Assembly (NCBI GenBank): GCA_036509895.1
Contig: DATCEV010000055.1
Location: 12,473 to 76,472, forward strand
DNA from: Verrucomicrobiia bacterium
Lineage (GTDB): Bacteria > Verrucomicrobiota > Verrucomicrobiia > Limisphaerales > UBA11358
DNA: 64,000 nt
Direction of reading: 5' to 3'
The notes under the pieces are model-generated. The model was not told the DNA's origin. It was given only the letters and a program-made list of their open reading frames with translations, and ran no database searches. Below, in pieces: positions 3,656-51,420 of the stretch. How positions within the stretch are numbered: position 1 is the first letter of the stretch; every line of letters begins with the position of its first letter. The position numbers and the translations under genes were made by a program.

Positions 3656-5797
3656 TCATGGCGCGCGATGGATGCGGAAAAAATTTATCGGGCCGCCAAA
3701 GTTGTTGGTCGTGAAAGTGAAACTGGCATCGGTGGTCGTGGTCATAATGTTCGTGGCAAAAGGCGTCCACGAAAATAAATCGGCGGAAGTTTCGACGTTG
3801 TAATTGCGATTATTTTGCGATTCCCATGCGAGCGTGAGATTTTGATTGGTTCGCGCGAGGGACAGGATTTTGAACGGCGTGTCGAACGGATTTTTGAAAA
3901 CCATGAGGACGGGCAAATGATCGGAGGCGATTTTATCGTCGTTGCCGTTCAAATTCGGCGGCGGCGGATTCAGCAAATCGGTGCGGAAAACTTCGCTGGC
4001 CGCGAGGTTGGAAAATAAAAGCGGGCAGGGCAAAATGTAATCGAAGCGCGTGTCGAGCGAGCCTTGAATGGATTCGGTCAAATCGGTGCGCGTGGTGGGA
4101 TTGATGGGAATGGTCATTTGCAATCCGGTCGCGGGCGCGGTCAGGCGTTGCAGCGGATGGCCGCTCGTGTAATCGCCGGTCTCGGGGAAAAAAGCGTCCT
4201 CATTCATGTCACCGTCCAAAATGTAAGGATGCGCCGCATTTGTGGAGGTCAGAAAAGTTGCGACAAAATAATTTGAAACCGCCGAGGCTTCCGCCGCGCG
4301 TTTGGCAGCATCATCCGGCGGGTCATCCGTCGTAGATTTCAAGTGCGCGACAAAAACGTGCAACGGCAGCGGCCAGTTCGGCACGGCAATCTGCGCTTCA
4401 AACAAATCGCGGGTAAAATTATCCGCGTTCTGGCTCGACCGGTTGGTGTAACCGAACGGATTCAAATTGGCCGTGTGCAAATGGCTGGCCGAACGTGTGA
4501 TCGGAAACCGGCTGGCGATGACGTTTTGAATGAACGTGTCGCCAAAAGAATTTGTCGCCAGAAAATAGCCGGGCAAAAAGGCTGTCATCCAATTGGCCAT
4601 TTGCGCGAGGCCGTTGGTCGTGGGAATTTCGTTGAACGTGACGATGTCAGGATTGAGATAAATCAATTCGCGGCCGATGGCCTGGACTTGCGGCGCGTTC
4701 GTCGTCCAATCAGTCGCGCCATTGCCTTCGACATTATATTGCAAAATCCGAATCTCGCCGTTCGTCGCCTCGAATGAAACGGGCGCGACGAAAAGCATCA
4801 CCGGGCTGCTCGTGATTGCGCCGGCGACATTCGTAATCGTCACGGAATAATTTCCCGCCTGATGGGTCGTCAAATTATTCAAAGCCAAAGTCGAACTGTT
4901 CGCGCCGATTAAATTGGTTCCATCAAGTTGCCATTGAAAAGCGGGCATCGGATTTCCGTCAGCCGTCACGCTAAAAATCGCGAATCCGCCTTCGCCCGCA
5001 GCTTCATTTTGTGGCCGGGTTAAAATTGTGGGCGCATTTGTGGACGGACTCGTGGCTTGAAAACTGACCGTCAAATCGTCAACGGCCATGCCCGCATCGC
5101 TGCCGTTATCATCTGTATCTCGCCAGCGCAAAAAAATTTCCTGTCCCGGTTGAACGACCGCCCCCCTTAAAACCACACCGTCAAAAATTTGCCGGTTGGT
5201 CGCCGCGTTGCCGTCCAAAACCAGGCTGCTGTTCGTATTGACAACCGGCGAATTGAAATTCAGCGCGTTGAAAGTTGTCCAGGTTTTGGAATTGACCGCG
5301 TCGGCATCCGTCAATGGAGCGTTCGCGAGCTGATATGAAAACGTGAGAACGTTTGTCACGGCACCGGAGCCGTTGGCGGCGCGCCATTCTTCGCCCGCGT
5401 AAGAAATGGTGATGTTCGTTTGCGCGAAAGTCGTGTCATTGGTGAAGCGGACTCCGTAAGCGTAATCCAGGCCGGAGGTGGCGACCGATCCGAGAGCGCG
5501 ATCCCCTGCCGTATTCACGCCGTTCGTTCCAAAACTGTAAAGGCTGCCAATCGAACCCGTGCCGGCGTTGGCGACGTAAGTCACAGCGTTCGTCGCGCCT
5601 TTGGCTGCATACCAGCCCGGCAAAGTAAAATTATTCGTCCAATTATGCGTGCCGCTGGCGGCCAGCGAATCAAAATTTTGCGAATACGTTCCGCCGCTCA
5701 TCAAAATCTGCGCCGAACTTAAGCCAGCCGATAGAATAAAAACGAAAGTCAAAACGATTGGGACTTTTTTGAAAGATCGAACGGCAAAAAGTGACAT
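3656..5797 (-). CDS. Secreted endonuclease/exonuclease/phosphatase (EEP) family protein with an Ig-like domain and a C-terminal beta-sandwich tail
   Basis: Signal peptide. Ig-like segment FQWQLDGTNL..AGNYSVTITN. EEP motifs ILQYNVEG, VTFNEI and SDHLPVLMVF. Tail LTLAWES..WTPF..FFRIHR. Confidence 0.7.
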   Translation of the reverse strand: MSLFAVRSFKKVPIVLTFVFILSAGLSSAQILMSGGTYSQNFDSLAASGTHNWTNNFTLPGWYAAKGATNAVTYVANAGTGSIGSLYSFGTNGVNTAGDRALGSVATSGLDYAYGVRFTNDTTFAQTNITISYAGEEWRAANGSGAVTNVLTFSYQLANAPLTDADAVNSKTWTTFNALNFNSPVVNTNSSLVLDGNAATNRQIFDGVVLRGAVVQPGQEIFLRWRDTDDNGSDAGMAVDDLTVSFQATSPSTNAPTILTRPQNEAAGEGGFAIFSVTADGNPMPAFQWQLDGTNLIGANSSTLALNNLTTHQAGNYSVTITNVAGAITSSPVMLFVAPVSFEATNGEIRILQYNVEGNGATDWTTNAPQVQAIGRELIYLNPDIVTFNEIPTTNGLAQMANWMTAFLPGYFLATNSFGDTFIQNVIASRFPITRSASHLHTANLNPFGYTNRSSQNADNFTRDLFEAQIAVPNWPLPLHVFVAHLKSTTDDPPDDAAKRAAEASAVSNYFVATFLTSTNAAHPYILDGDMNEDAFFPETGDYTSGHPLQRLTAPATGLQMTIPINPTTRTDLTESIQGSLDTRFDYILPCPLLFSNLAASEVFRTDLLNPPPPNLNGNDDKIASDHLPVLMVFKNPFDTPFKILSLARTNQNLTLAWESQNNRNYNVETSADLFSWTPFATNIMTTTTDASFTFTTNNFGGPINFFRIHRAP

Positions 5798-7566: not shown

Positions 7567-7766
7567 AATGGATGCGAGGCTTTCGCGCGGCTCGCGGGCA
7601 CGCGACTTGGCCAGCAGCGCGTCGTGGGAATCTTCCCAAAGTTTTTCATGCTTTCGCAAGTCAATCACGGCTGCCGTTTTTTTACCGCGCTCATCCACCA
7701 TGAAAGTGATTCCGCTTCATGAAAATAATCTGGCAGAAAATCTTCCGACAAAGATAAAGATGTCAT
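7540..7766 (-). pseudogene. Phd/YefM-like antitoxin remnant, apparently frameshifted
   Basis: ATG at 7766 overlaps the ilvA stop (ATGA) and gives MTSLSLSEDFLPDYFHEAESLS. A second frame from 7701 gives MVDERGKKTAAVIDLRKHEKLWEDSHDALLAKSRAREPRESL (own translation). The 3' end runs into the MITE-like element. Confidence 0.35.
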
Positions 7767-9001
7767 GCCGACGGCATGGAATAAAGTTCCACGCCATTTT
7801 CCGCCAGTCGTTTTTGGATTTCTGCGACGTGCGCGCGGTCGCGGGTTTCCACCGTGCATAACACATGAACTCGCGAAAGGTCAGGTCCGGCAAAAGTCCG
7901 GTTGTGAACGATTTCCGTCACGTTCGCTCCAGCATCGGCCAACACGCCAGACAAATGTGCCAAGCTGCCGGGACGATCATTCAATAAAACATCAAAACGA
8001 TAAATGCGTCCGTCTGCCGCCAATCCGCGTTCGATCACGCGGCTGTGCGCCAGCGGATCAATGTTTCCGCCCGTCAGCAATAACACGACTTTGCGACCAG
8101 CGAGTTCCGGCAATTGTCCGCTCAACATCGCGGCCAATCCCGCCGCGCCCGCGCCTTCGATGATGCACCTTTCCAGTTCGGCCAATCGCAGCATCGCCAG
8201 CGCGAGCCATTCTTCCTGAACTTGAACCATTTTGTGAACCAATGGCCGCGCGATGGCGAGCGTGTGTCGTCCGGCTTCGGCCACGGCCAATCCGTCCGCA
8301 AGCGTATATTTTGTAGCGACACGAATTGGTATTTCCGCCGCCAAGCCTGCCGCGAAACACGCGGCGTTTGCAGGTTCAACGCCGATGATTTGCAAATCCG
8401 GTTTGAGCGCGTGAAAAACCGTTGCCACGCCTGCCAACAATCCGCCGCCGCCGACCGGCACAACGACCGCTTCGACGTCGGGAACCTGTTCGAGAATTTC
8501 AAATGCCAGCGTTCCCTGTCCGGCGATGACGCGCGGATCGTCGAATGGATGAACGTAAGTTAATTTTTTTTCTTCGGCCAAACGATTGGCTTCGCTGCGT
8601 GCGTCGTCAAACGTGTCTCCGTAAAGAATCACCGTCGCGCCAAGTTGACGGCAACGCGCGACTTTCACGAGCGGCGCAAAACGCGGCATCACGACCGTCA
8701 CTGGAATTTCAAGCAATTGTCCATGCCGCGCCAAACCCAACGCATGATTTCCCGCCGACGCGGCGATGACTCCCGCACGCGAGTGTTCCGGCGTCAGTTG
8801 CGCCAGCGCGTTGCGCGCGCCGCGTTCCTTGAAACTGCCGGTGCGTTGCAAAAATTCCTGTTTGCAGAAAATGCGCGCGCCGGTCAATTCGCTCAACGCG
8901 GCGGATTCCTCGCATGGCGTGTAACGAATCGCGCCGTTCAAGCGAGAACGCGCCGCGACGATTTCTGAAAGCGGAACCATGATCTTGGATTGATTTTTCA
9001 T
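7763..9001 (-). CDS. ilvA: Threonine ammonia-lyase (biosynthetic threonine dehydratase) with a C-terminal ACT-like domain
   Basis: PLP-fold motifs FKERGARN and ASAGNHA, plus an ACT-like tail. Start set at MKNQSKIMVPL (9001), downstream of the attenuator terminator. Track ORF extends to 9079. Confidence 0.85.
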   Translation of the reverse strand: MKNQSKIMVPLSEIVAARSRLNGAIRYTPCEESAALSELTGARIFCKQEFLQRTGSFKERGARNALAQLTPEHSRAGVIAASAGNHALGLARHGQLLEIPVTVVMPRFAPLVKVARCRQLGATVILYGDTFDDARSEANRLAEEKKLTYVHPFDDPRVIAGQGTLAFEILEQVPDVEAVVVPVGGGGLLAGVATVFHALKPDLQIIGVEPANAACFAAGLAAEIPIRVATKYTLADGLAVAEAGRHTLAIARPLVHKMVQVQEEWLALAMLRLAELERCIIEGAGAAGLAAMLSGQLPELAGRKVVLLLTGGNIDPLAHSRVIERGLAADGRIYRFDVLLNDRPGSLAHLSGVLADAGANVTEIVHNRTFAGPDLSRVHVLCTVETRDRAHVAEIQKRLAENGVELYSMPSA

Positions 9002-9017
9002 AAATGATTTAGGCAAC

Positions 9018-9045
9018 AAAAAAGCCCCGAGCGGAACTCGAGGCT
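9018..9045 (-). terminator. Attenuator terminator (segments 3:4) upstream of ilvA
   Basis: Minus strand reads AGCCUCGAG-UUCCG-CUCGGGGCU, a 9-bp stem with one G-U pair, followed by UUUUUU. Confidence 0.7.
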
Positions 9046-9075
9046 TTGGTGAAAATCGCGTGCTATTGGCAAAAG

Positions 9076-9144
9076 TCATCCAAGCCCCGAATCGGGGCTG
9101 ATAATAATCGCGATGATTATATTGGATGACGCAAAGTTAAACAT
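9076..9144 (-). CDS. Ile-rich leader peptide of the ilvA attenuator (22 aa: MFNFASSNIIIAIIISPDSGLG)
   Basis: Own translation. Six Ile codons fall within seven consecutive codons. The last codons and the stop overlap hairpin AGCCCCG-AUU-CGGGGCU. Confidence 0.65.
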   Translation of the reverse strand: MFNFASSNIIIAIIISPDSGLG

Positions 9145-9155
9145 TGCGAGGTTTA

Positions 9156-9182
9156 ACTATATTAGAAATTGATGCGTGTCAA
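9156..9182 (-). promoter_or_regulatory. Candidate sigma70 promoter for the ilv leader
   Basis: Minus strand reads TTGACA, a 15-nt spacer, then TATAGT, ending about 12 nt before the leader ATG. The spacer is shorter than optimal. Confidence 0.4.
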
Positions 9183-9200
9183 GTTGCGGCGCCGCAATTC

Positions 9201-10439
9201 TTAAACCAATTGCGGCTCTTCAATTTCTTTCGGCGGTTTGGCCAGCGGCGTGCCATCGGCGGCTTCGGGATATTCAAAAATTTTGCCTTCGTAATTGCGG
9301 ATGAGCACGCGACCCGCGTTGCGGCACAAAACATATTCGGGCGCGACCGGCACTTTGCCGCCGCCGCCGGGCGCGTCAATGACATAAGTCGGCACGGCGT
9401 AACCGGTCGTGTGGCCGCGCAATTTTTCCATGATCTCCAAACCGCGCTTGACGCTCGTGCGCAAATGCGCGGAGCCGGAAATCAAATCGCATTGATAAAT
9501 GTAATACGGCTTCACGCGGCACATCAAAAGTTTTTGCACGAGCGCTTTCATCACGTCGGCATCGTCGTTGACGTGCTTGAGCAAGACACTTTGATTGCCG
9601 AGCGGAATGCCGGCATCGGCCAGACGACCGAGCGCATCACGAACTTCCGTGGTCAATTCGCGCGGATGATTCGTGTGAACGCTGATGAACAGCGGATGAA
9701 AATTTTTCAGCATCGCGCACAGTTCGGGCGTGATGCGTTGCGGCAGAAAAATCGGAATGCGCGTGCCGATGCGCAAAAATTCCACGTGCGGAATCGCGCG
9801 CAGGCGGCTCAACAAATTTTCCAGTTTTTCATCGCTCAACAACAGCGGATCGCCGCCGCTCAAAAGCACGTCGCGGATTTCGGGATGTTGCGCGATGTAT
9901 TCGATTTGCCGGTCAAATTCGGGATGAAAATCGTAGCCGCTGGCGTTGCTCACGAGCCGTGAGCGCGTGCAGTAACGGCAATAACTCGCGCAACGATCCG
10001 TCACCAAAAATAAAACGCGGTCGGGATAGCGATGCACCAAGCCGGGCACGGGCGAATGCGAATCTTCGCCGCACGGATCGCTCATTTCCCAGGATGCGGT
10101 TTTTGTCTCGGCAATTTTCGGAATGACTTGCAAGCGAATCGGACAATTTTCGTCCGCCGGGTCAATCAGATTGAAAAAATAGGGCGTGATGGCGAGCGCG
10201 AGTTTGGTGTTCGCGAGTTTTGCGCCGGCAAATTCTTCCGGCGTGAGCGTGGGCAAAAAATTTTGCAATTGCTCGGCGTTCGTGATGCGATGTTTGAGTT
10301 GCCAGTGCCAGTCGTTCCAGTCTTTTTCCGAAACGTCGCGCCAGAAACCGCGGCCGGCGGAATGGAATTCTTTCAAGGATTGAAATCGAGGGGCTGGCGG
10401 CGGCTCCTTGCCGCTCGCAGAAAAATTGTCAGTCTGCAT
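9201..10439 (-). CDS. kamA: Lysine 2,3-aminomutase family radical SAM enzyme
   Basis: CASYCRYCTRS (CxxxCxxC), LLSGGDPL and GGGGK are KamA-family signatures. 412 aa. Confidence 0.85.
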   Translation of the reverse strand: MQTDNFSASGKEPPPAPRFQSLKEFHSAGRGFWRDVSEKDWNDWHWQLKHRITNAEQLQNFLPTLTPEEFAGAKLANTKLALAITPYFFNLIDPADENCPIRLQVIPKIAETKTASWEMSDPCGEDSHSPVPGLVHRYPDRVLFLVTDRCASYCRYCTRSRLVSNASGYDFHPEFDRQIEYIAQHPEIRDVLLSGGDPLLLSDEKLENLLSRLRAIPHVEFLRIGTRIPIFLPQRITPELCAMLKNFHPLFISVHTNHPRELTTEVRDALGRLADAGIPLGNQSVLLKHVNDDADVMKALVQKLLMCRVKPYYIYQCDLISGSAHLRTSVKRGLEIMEKLRGHTTGYAVPTYVIDAPGGGGKVPVAPEYVLCRNAGRVLIRNYEGKIFEYPEAADGTPLAKPPKEIEEPQLV

Positions 10440-10494
10440 TTTCTTTCACTATAAAATTGAATCGCGTTCTGTCAAGTTGGCCGCCGTGATCAGC

Positions 10495-50442: not shown

Positions 50443-50470
50443 TTGACATTTGACTGTCCGCACTTATAAT
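50443..50470 (+). promoter_or_regulatory. Consensus sigma70 promoter
   Basis: TTGACA at 50443-50448, a 16-nt spacer, then TATAAT at 50465-50470, upstream of the FecR-like gene. Confidence 0.55.
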
Positions 50471-50504
50471 GTCCTCGAATAGAAGAAGTCCTATAAAAAT
50501 TGTT

Positions 50505-51350
50505 ATGAAAAATATCCAGACGACATTTTTGGCCGCTGCTTGCGGATTGGCTTTAGCCTTCACCGTTTCAGCACAGGATAAACAAGGCGTCGCCACCGTG
50601 GTGCGCGTCAAAGGCGGAGCGAGTTATTCGCTGCAAAGTGGCGCAAACGCCAAATGGATTCCTTTGGTTCCCGGAAAAGTTCTGGTCGCCGGCGCGACCA
50701 TCCGAACGGAACCGAATGGCATGGTGGATGTCGTGCTAGGCAAGACCATCCAGATGCCTCAAGCCGTCTCGACACCAGATAGAATTTCGCTGGCGCCCGA
50801 TTCTCGCGTGCGCGGCATGGTGGATTACCGCCCTTCGGTAGAGCAAAATGTGATCCGCCTGTCCGGCGGCACCACGCTTAAAATTGATACTTTGACCGTT
50901 TCCGATACGGGCGTGGATACCGTCAGCGACACCGAATTGGATTTGCAAAAAGGCCGCATTTTCGCGAGCGTCAAAAAACTCTCCGCCCAATCCAAATATC
51001 TGGTTAAAATTCCGAACGGCATTGCCGGTGTTCGCGGCACATTGTTCGGCTTGGGTGCGGACGGCTGGTGCGGCGTGATTCTAAATTCCGTCTGGCTTTC
51101 CACGGTCGGACCAAATGGCCAGGTCACCACCGTGCAAGTCAACGCCGGGCATGAATTCAACTTTAATAACGGCATCACTCTTTTGCCGCCTCAATTAGCT
51201 TTATTGTTGTCACAAATTTCCAGTTCACTGGACACATTGTATCTTCAAATTGTTCATTATGCTTACGACCGGGACACACACACTTACATTTCACCAACCA
51301 GTGGCCGTTTTTTGGGTGGAAACAATAACAATGATAACAACGCGGATTAA
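50505..51350 (+). CDS. FecR-domain secreted protein
   Basis: Signal peptide MKNIQTTFLAAACGLALAFTVSA. FecR-like block VVRVKGGASYSL..GATIRTEPNGMVDVVLG. Asn-rich tail. Confidence 0.7.
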   Translation: MKNIQTTFLAAACGLALAFTVSAQDKQGVATVVRVKGGASYSLQSGANAKWIPLVPGKVLVAGATIRTEPNGMVDVVLGKTIQMPQAVSTPDRISLAPDSRVRGMVDYRPSVEQNVIRLSGGTTLKIDTLTVSDTGVDTVSDTELDLQKGRIFASVKKLSAQSKYLVKIPNGIAGVRGTLFGLGADGWCGVILNSVWLSTVGPNGQVTTVQVNAGHEFNFNNGITLLPPQLALLLSQISSSLDTLYLQIVHYAYDRDTHTYISPTSGRFLGGNNNNDNNAD

Positions 51351-51386
51351 TAATTTCTTTTAATTCATTGTTTCAGTCATTTAGAA

Positions 51387-51420
51387 ACCCGGAGCAGCCT
51401 TGAGTTGCTCTGGGTTTTTG
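51387..51420 (+). terminator. Rho-independent terminator-like hairpin
   Basis: ACCCGGAGCA-9 nt-TGCTCTGGGT, a 10-bp stem with one G-U pair, then TTTTT. It lies 15 nt before the cyclase GTG. Confidence 0.5.

Follow-up and report, generated by a model that had tools for sequence, protein, structure and literature searches.

Leader-peptide attenuation of transcription is textbook knowledge from the enterobacterial amino-acid operons, and Rfam holds leader families for Leu, Trp, His, Thr and Phe. In the E. coli ilvGMEDA leader (ilvL), as in trpL, hisL, leuL, thrL and pheL, a short open reading frame (ORF) that contains consecutive codons for the amino acid made by the pathway is translated, and the position of the ribosome decides between mutually exclusive protector, antiterminator and terminator hairpins (pairings 1:2, 2:3 and 3:4 of four RNA segments). 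The site of the stop codon is such that segment 2 is masked by a ribosome terminating there. Here we describe an element that resembles these leaders in each of these respects, located upstream of ilvA in a 64,000-nucleotide stretch of DNA from a Verrucomicrobiia bacterium (GenBank assembly GCA_036509895.1, contig DATCEV010000055.1, positions 12,473 to 76,472; hereafter the window). An original prediction, made from the letters of the window alone, had proposed that the enterobacterial ilv/thr/leu logic applies there to the first enzyme of isoleucine synthesis, and every defining feature of that logic that can be looked for in sequence was found. Its description of the sequence proved accurate throughout, and the sequence-level tests that it called for all gave positive results. 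Judging from sequence and RNA folding, the element is probably a ribosome-mediated, isoleucine-responsive transcription attenuator controlling a monocistronic ilvA, a reading to which we assign a probability of about 0.85.

Functionally, the element would belong to the trp/his/leu/thr/ilv/phe type of leader-peptide attenuation, while falling outside every curated Rfam leader family. Indeed, it has no sequence or model homology to these leaders: no Rfam 15 family matches the window (the best, Phe_leader, reaches 19.5 bits, E = 2.4, against a gathering score of 55), and twelve other members of its family give no Rfam leader match at gathering thresholds. Its regulatory codons are for isoleucine only, whereas ilvL mixes Ile, Leu and Val codons and thrL mixes Thr and Ile. 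Contrary to ilvL, which precedes a multi-gene ilv operon, it would regulate ilvA alone, the sole isoleucine-specific step. The regulatory codons are folded into a covarying hairpin, a difference from ilvL but a likeness to pheL, whose regulatory codons also lie inside a long closed stem. Finally, it differs from the enterobacterial leaders in its host phylum, Verrucomicrobiota, and in an ORF that starts about 30-36 nt after the -35 box, with almost no predicted 5' untranslated region (UTR) and no Shine-Dalgarno sequence.

Outside enterobacteria the documented range of the mechanism is narrow. A survey from 2010 described it as known until then only in Proteobacteria and Actinobacteria, and added Firmicutes (PMC2965389). 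The Corynebacterium ilvBNC leader, or ilvB-II motif (PMC11857589, PMC10272879), and the Leu-rich attenuator peptide of Staphylococcus aureus (PMC5794164) are likewise cases of leader-peptide control of branched-chain amino-acid genes beyond Proteobacteria. They differ from the present element in lying upstream of ilvB or ilvD operons, in their mixed branched-chain or Leu codons and in their unrelated sequence, and none is reported upstream of a stand-alone ilvA. Full-text literature searching, to which subscription-only papers were closed, returned no description of leader-peptide attenuation in Verrucomicrobia. We therefore regard the element as a genuine and new family of sequences within a well-known kind of attenuation, found in a phylum new to it. 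The result is solid and useful, though it will not surprise a specialist. A family conserved across Verrucomicrobiota widens the range of a textbook mechanism, and its logic is unusually clean, with isoleucine codons only and the isoleucine-committed enzyme only. In practical terms, many metagenome-assembled genomes (MAGs) from soil and freshwater gain an annotated small ORF and an annotated RNA, and a covariance model is ready for use.

An isoleucine-rich leader upstream of ilvA

All coordinates given here are on the minus strand of the window unless stated otherwise. A kamA-family gene on the same strand as ilvA ends at 9201, and the 199-nt gap between the two genes holds the element. Direct reading and the list of ORFs place there, as predicted, a leader peptide ORF of 22 codons plus TGA (MFNFASSNIIIAIIISPDSGLG, 9144..9076), with six isoleucine codons among seven consecutive ones (9120..9100): AUA AUC AUC (9120..9112), a GCG, and AUU AUU AUC (9108..9100).

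The 146-nt leader RNA folds with a minimum free energy (MFE) of -51 kcal/mol (z = -5.06), and 0 of 200 dinucleotide shuffles were as stable. Since a covariance model built without the window also finds here its single match, at E = 3e-23 (see below), the feature is far beyond chance. In the MFE the whole ORF structure is closed by helix P1, in which the 5' strand GUCAUCCA (9130..9123) pairs with UGGAUGAC (9082..9075), a strand that spans the stop codon. Inside P1, a hairpin formed by the Ile codons themselves (P2; AUAAUC 9120..9115, loop AUCGC, GAUUAU 9109..9104) is followed by P3, the pairing of AGCCCCG (9099..9093) with CGGGGCU (9089..9083). P3 corresponds to the predicted 1:2 pairing overlapping the last leader codons, and belongs to the unconstrained MFE. 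Its 5' arm, segment 1, directly adjoins the 3' end of the last Ile codon and would be covered by a ribosome stalled at that codon. Segment 2, UCGGGGCUUGG (9090..9080), serves P3 as its 3' arm and the antiterminator as its 5' strand, and ends 1 nt before the UGA. This is the geometry that the classical model requires.

Downstream, folding and a terminator scan agree on an intrinsic terminator at 9047..9018, with a 12-bp stem (9047..9036 / 9032..9021), a UUC loop and U6 (9023..9018). There are 16 nt between its last U (9018) and the ilvA ATG at 9001, that is, the offset of 17 that had been predicted for the 3:4 pairing. The antiterminator pairing 2:3, UCGGGGCUUGG (9090..9080) with CCAAAGCCUCGA (9049..9038), has the expected 11 bp and one bulge, an A, in the window fold. 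It shares 9090..9083 with P3 and 9047..9038 with the terminator, and is hence mutually exclusive with both. In folds of the nascent RNA the full antiterminator conformer occupies 9090..9038, with the 2:3 pairing as base helix and inner helices across the spacer. All the segments of the four-segment RNA originally predicted are therefore real, but that description fell short: 1:2 is the inner part of a larger closed structure and 2:3 the base of an antiterminator of about 55 nt. Absent from it were the putative near-leaderless start, the covarying hairpin inside the Ile codons and the long multi-helix antiterminator.

Related leaders in Verrucomicrobiota

A scan with the IlvA protein, taking one genome per species, yielded 80 loci, 44 of them from Verrucomicrobiota. 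In almost every one of these 44, a promoter box, an Ile-rich ORF, a spacer and a terminator lie upstream of ilvA. The carriers fall into four orders (Pedosphaerales/Limisphaerales, Chthoniobacterales, Verrucomicrobiales and Opitutales), and a further 41 ilvA-linked leaders were found on metagenome contigs, bringing the collection to 71 distinct leaders. Cultured carriers include Chthoniobacter flavus Ellin428 (L020), Verrucomicrobium sp. (L022/L023), and Pedosphaera or Opitutaceae strains. The mini-ORF and stems of the original prediction are thus kept in 44 species-representative genomes and 41 metagenome contigs. Its suggestion of a PVC lineage was also right: the closest IlvA relatives, 86% identical, place the window in Verrucomicrobiota, in the Pedosphaerales/Limisphaerales group.

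We built a covariance model (R1) from 33 relatives, excluding the window. Run on the 64-kb window, it matched once, at 9147..9019, from model position 1 to 138 (the full length), scoring 85.2 bits (E = 3.2e-23). It also recovered the held-out Opitutales versions at 29-40 bits, and it found no match upstream of ilvA in the Acidobacteriota, Chloroflexota, Firmicutes or Alphaproteobacteria loci.

Reading-frame constraint and the closed structure

Several independent sequence signals support the view that the leader ORF is read as protein. In the relatives an in-frame ATG or GTG stands 30-36 nt past the -35 box, and the reading frame is kept in the 71 distinct leaders. The stop codon occupies a fixed alignment position with a varied identity (TAG in 58, TAA in 8 and TGA in 5 of the leaders). 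Leader length is narrowly distributed, with a mode of 23 codons (45/71) and a range of 19-29 codons among the Verrucomicrobiota loci. In an alignment of 36 sequences, the gap events between ATG and stop were all multiples of three (5/5), compared with only 8/27 of those 3' of the stop, and in one leader (L021) the ORF insertion is exactly one additional ATT codon. Isoleucine is the most frequent residue (368/1623, or 22.7%), a peptide core M-I-I-x-I-I-I is common to the family, and the last three Ile codons, which adjoin segment 1, are almost invariant. Moreover, Opitutales leaders retain the Ile run (..AMIIGMMIII..) despite other surrounding nucleotides, stop position and structural context.

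The AUA at 9120..9118 of the window is the sole ATA among the 434 Ile codons of 84 leader records (ATT 245, ATC 188). It arose where relatives carry AUG, alongside a compensating C-to-U change in P2.

The RNA of the ORF is more structured than shuffled sequences (family mean z = -2.15). P2 pairs in 95% of alignment cells, all four of its core pairs show double changes in some family member, and the window holds one compensated pair (G-C to A-U). A P1-equivalent outer helix is present in most individual folds of relatives, in a register that differs between clades; since these shifts prevent scoring P1 on one alignment, its support comes from the individual folds. In the Chthoniobacterales-type members the start codon itself lies within P1. 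RNAalifold on the whole leader returned P3 in a slightly different register and a weak UUAUU/GAUAG stem in place of P1.

In a rival reading, the element would be a translation-independent RNA (a riboswitch, or a protein- or tRNA-binding leader) whose three-helix closed fold senses a ligand and thereby selects terminator or antiterminator, the ORF being incidental. The excess of structure over shuffles, the very high nucleotide conservation of the 3' strand and past the stop codon, and the preservation of P2 by compensatory changes even where Ile codons have been lost (L001) all fit such an RNA. It would leave unexplained, however, an in-frame start at a fixed promoter distance in essentially all members, a stop fixed in position and free in identity, indels that keep to multiples of three within the ORF and not downstream, up to the gain of a single ATT, and an Ile run that persists in the different nucleotide and structural context of Opitutales. 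Furthermore, P1 shifts its register between clades, unlike a ligand pocket, and no Rfam family matches. We consider this explanation improbable.

Conservation of the terminator and the antiterminator

The terminator is found in all aligned relatives, where 95% of cells pair and three pairs covary (in 8, 4 and 3 sequences). Family terminators have a GC-rich stem of 9-12 bp followed in nearly every member by five to eight U, and end 14-20 nt before the ilvA start. This short distance, together with the lack of a visible Shine-Dalgarno sequence before the ilvA ATG, which could let local structure matter for initiation, would suit a control exerted mainly on translation or mRNA stability. A hairpin 16 nt before the ATG, together with its alternative fold, would then modulate ribosome access or decay, with little termination. 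The hairpin is nonetheless a canonical intrinsic terminator, and a conserved U tract is needless for one that acts purely on translation. The two modes are not mutually exclusive; as the main mode of control, we regard this one as improbable to the same degree as a ligand-sensing RNA.

As for the antiterminator, its 8-bp family helix, between alignment columns 66-73 and 128-137, can form in 96.2% of cells, compared with 17-74% in a control in which the partner was slid by one to three columns. RNAalifold on the antiterminator region alone gave the base helix as consensus. In individual folds, the base helix supports a structure of about 55 nt in which GGGAU or GGAAU past the stop pairs with AUCCC or AUUCC, UAGA pairs with UCUA in the spacer, and a small GCG..CGC forms the tip. 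This structure explains the conservation of the spacer and of the nucleotides after the stop. The region is also more stable than dinucleotide shuffles (z = -4.3 in the window; family mean -2.7, with 27/36 members below -2). Compensatory support is modest (4 compensated cells at one pair, other changes being wobble-compatible) because these nucleotides hardly vary under several simultaneous constraints. The conservation of stems that the original prediction called for thus takes the form of compensatory changes in the terminator and P2, and of a 2:3 helix that can pair in 96% of cells.

Promoter and putative near-leaderless start

By direct reading, the leader has its own promoter, with a -35 hexamer TTGACA at 9182..9177 that is conserved in relatives and a candidate -10 that is either TAGTTA (9159..9154, 17-nt spacer) or TATAGT (9161..9156, 15-nt spacer). 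A consensus promoter scan did not call the -10 region, owing to the spacing and hexamer rules of the scan; in relatives, TAnnAA-type hexamers occur at 17-nt spacing. A TTGAC(A) box lies 30-36 nt 5' of the leader ATG in nearly all 71 relatives, though their upstream genes differ. With either -10 candidate, transcription in the window would start roughly 2-6 nt 5' of the leader ATG, and transcripts of the family should begin 0-6 nt before it. Because this spacing goes together with the absence of a Shine-Dalgarno sequence before the ATG, we infer leaderless or nearly leaderless initiation.

There is a precedent in mycobacteria, where leaderless polycysteine short ORFs are Cys-responsive attenuators (bioRxiv 10.1101/834739). 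They share with the ilvA leader an amino-acid-sensing upstream ORF that starts where the transcript starts or close beside that point, and that controls the biosynthetic genes downstream. The phylum, the amino acid and the sequence differ; the ilvA leader has a canonical U-tract terminator and a covarying antiterminator, and its leaderless start is read from promoter spacing. In a phylum that has received little study, the element may thus offer a case, open to testing, of a transcript that senses an amino acid with almost no leader before its first codon.

A further and more doubtful step, which we put forward tentatively, is that the element works as a leaderless single-round attenuator in which the part played by RNA structure goes beyond the choice of terminator or antiterminator, P2 acting as a polymerase-pause or ribosome-slowing synchroniser. 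In Chthoniobacterales-type members the AUG is paired into P1 once the 3' strand has been made, so that only a pioneer ribosome loading during transcription could report on isoleucine status. If true, this would be a design distinct from the enterobacterial paradigm of a Shine-Dalgarno-led ORF with a 1:2 pause hairpin downstream of the regulatory codons.

Another promoter in the window (TTGACA, 16-nt spacer, TATAGT; 11/12 matches, near-consensus sigma-70-type) is found at 10448..10475, directly upstream of the kamA-family gene. The ATG of this gene, at 10439, comes only about 8 nt after the -10 box, which repeats the near-leaderless arrangement of the ilvA leader. In this organism, 5' UTRs may often be short or missing.

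Ribosome position and the choice of structure

To return to attenuation itself, we compared the energies of the competing folds and masked the leader RNA with an assumed ribosome footprint of -15 to +12 nt around the A site, a size taken from general knowledge. In the free window transcript, the closed structure plus terminator (1:2 and 3:4) reached -51.2 kcal/mol, versus -43.5 kcal/mol with 2:3 forced, so absence of translation should give termination. When the ribosome was placed on any of the six Ile codons (codons 9-11 and 13-15), the MFE of the nascent RNA, that is, of the transcript as it stands before the 3' arm of the terminator is made, became the antiterminator (-23.3 to -27.6 kcal/mol), with the terminator 5' arm fully sequestered. 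When it was placed on the UGA, segment 2 was covered, the antiterminator was blocked and the terminator formed. Both halves of the predicted switch, a stalled ribosome freeing segment 2 and a terminating one masking it, are hence reproduced by the modelling. Masking through the last Ile codon in relatives likewise gave an antiterminator sequestering the terminator 5' arm in about 41/44; the apparent exceptions (L030, L034 and L036) are an artefact of taking an Ile in a C-terminal extension as the last one.

The element would accordingly be expected to work as follows. The dedicated promoter would start a transcript with the first codon within a few nucleotides of its 5' end, and a ribosome would translate the 22-codon leader as RNA polymerase proceeds. 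When charged tRNA-Ile is scarce, the ribosome would stall on the six Ile codons (9120..9100), its footprint holding P1, P2 and P3 open and covering segment 1. Segment 2 (9090..9080) and the sequence after the stop could then pair with the spacer and the 5' arm of the terminator (to 9038), forming the long antiterminator and letting the polymerase read through into ilvA. When isoleucine is plentiful, the ribosome would reach the UGA (9078..9076) and cover segment 2; upon its release, the ORF RNA would close into P1, P2 and P3, segment 3 would stay free to form the terminator (9047..9018), and transcription would end 16 nt before ilvA. In the absence of any translation, the closed structure would likewise favour termination.

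Some observations weigh against this reading. At equilibrium, the terminator remains the favoured fold of the full-length RNA even when a ribosome is stalled on it; as in classical systems, the model thus depends on kinetics, with the antiterminator forming first. The absence of a Shine-Dalgarno sequence makes translation of the leader depend on the putative near-leaderless start. Two relatives have lost most of their Ile codons (two are left in L001, one in L003) and retain the RNA structure, and in L001 both arms of P2 have changed from Ile to Ala codons with pairing preserved. Finally, a conserved GGGGCAGGGAUAGACGCGC stretch crosses the stop codon in relatives, and its nucleotide conservation, above the coding requirement, may reflect an RNA-level function beyond codon sensing.

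Exclusive linkage to ilvA

To remove the bias of searching only upstream of ilvA, we searched metagenome contigs for a degenerate DNA pattern of 36 nt derived from the leader. In 41 of the 45 occurrences, an ilvA homologue starts 103-240 nt downstream on the same strand. Of the remaining four, one lies on a contig too short to tell and three represent one locus from related samples. The flanking genes do not follow: kamA and nth, the neighbours in the window, are present in 0/80 related loci, by which conserved synteny with either was rejected, and the leader unit travels with ilvA alone.

The one locus without ilvA (L087:1620-1760, the same locus as in L102 and L115) carries a relic leader in which the core of Ile codons, segment 2 and the stem of the terminator survive. 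The TTGACA promoter and a downstream ilvA are missing and the U tract is degraded. The relic lies between a gene for a large secreted protein and a LysR-like gene.

The linkage bears on the idea that the element chiefly yields a small hydrophobic peptide with a function of its own, or a small RNA that termination releases to act in trans, and merely happens to adjoin ilvA. The peptide core MIIAIII-SxxGQG is conserved, and the attenuator RNA and leader peptide released in Sinorhizobium (rnTrpL and peTrpL) are described as acting in trans (PMC6614838, PMC7298713). However, the N-terminal half of the peptide is variable, its conserved C-terminal residues coincide exactly with the nucleotides that pair in P3, P1 and the antiterminator, and away from ilvA the element survives only as one decayed relic. 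A role in trans would in any case add to attenuation and not replace it, and a product acting on its own account is very improbable. As for a chance juxtaposition, in which the hairpin would be the terminator of the upstream kamA-family gene, in whose same-strand 199-nt downstream gap it lies, and the Ile-rich ORF random, it is already refuted by the absence of kamA from related loci where the element still precedes Verrucomicrobial ilvA, by the ilvA-blind scan and by the match to the window-free model, and the element moreover has its own conserved promoter.

The ilvA start, neighbouring features and related loci

The element precedes a gene for a threonine ammonia-lyase of 412 aa with one C-terminal regulatory domain (ilvA, 9001..7763; TIGR01127 ilvA_1Cterm, 407 bits, cut-off 378.75). 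Most Verrucomicrobial IlvA homologues align from residue 1 of the query (MKNxS..), about 113-116 nt past the conserved motif, and their ilvA start is always downstream of the terminator, whereas the alternative ATG at 9079 would put the conserved terminator inside the coding sequence. Our analysis thus supports the start at 9001, not 9079, as had been proposed, a practical correction to the annotation.

A 9-bp inverted repeat (GCCGCAATT..AATTGCGGC, 9191..9216) lies a little 5' of the leader promoter, across the stop of the kamA-family gene. On the minus strand it is not followed by a U tract; the stem may end or stabilise the kamA transcript.

We also scanned the whole window for a second attenuator, as terminators preceded by short ORFs with amino-acid runs. 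One candidate, at 51415 on the plus strand (peptide VETITMITT), was rejected: the terminator belongs to the gene at 50469..51350 and the short ORF overlaps the end of that gene. This intrinsic terminator (51381..51419, plus strand) is a strong one, with a 13-bp stem of about -21 kcal/mol and U5. The product of the 50469..51350 gene before it ends in an Asn-rich tail, and the gene after it encodes a 752-aa membrane-sensor/cyclase-like protein.

Among the other loci, an Ile-containing ORF in Sphingobium (MTPRPINAIFAI..), about 180 nt upstream of ilvA, was discarded as a leader: it runs antisense to the N-terminal end of a divergent gene for an NAD-binding dehydrogenase, and it has no terminator. 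In an uncultured Verrucomicrobiae genome (L016:2715-2987), a 273-bp insertion separates the U tract from the ilvA start, with the leader intact (101 bits with R1). With its 31-nt terminal inverted repeats (97% complementary) and internal palindromes, the insertion looks like a MITE. A soil metagenome contig (L111:491-2289 and 3701-5499) carries two head-to-head copies of leader and ilvA in a 1.8-kb inverted duplication, 89% complementary. These are either true paralogues that have diverged or the product of two strains assembled into a chimera. Finally, in a Verrucomicrobiota MAG (L005:4518-4562, minus strand), a match to the Rfam Acido-Lenti-1 RNA (37.7 bits, gathering 37) lies about 300 nt downstream of ilvA.

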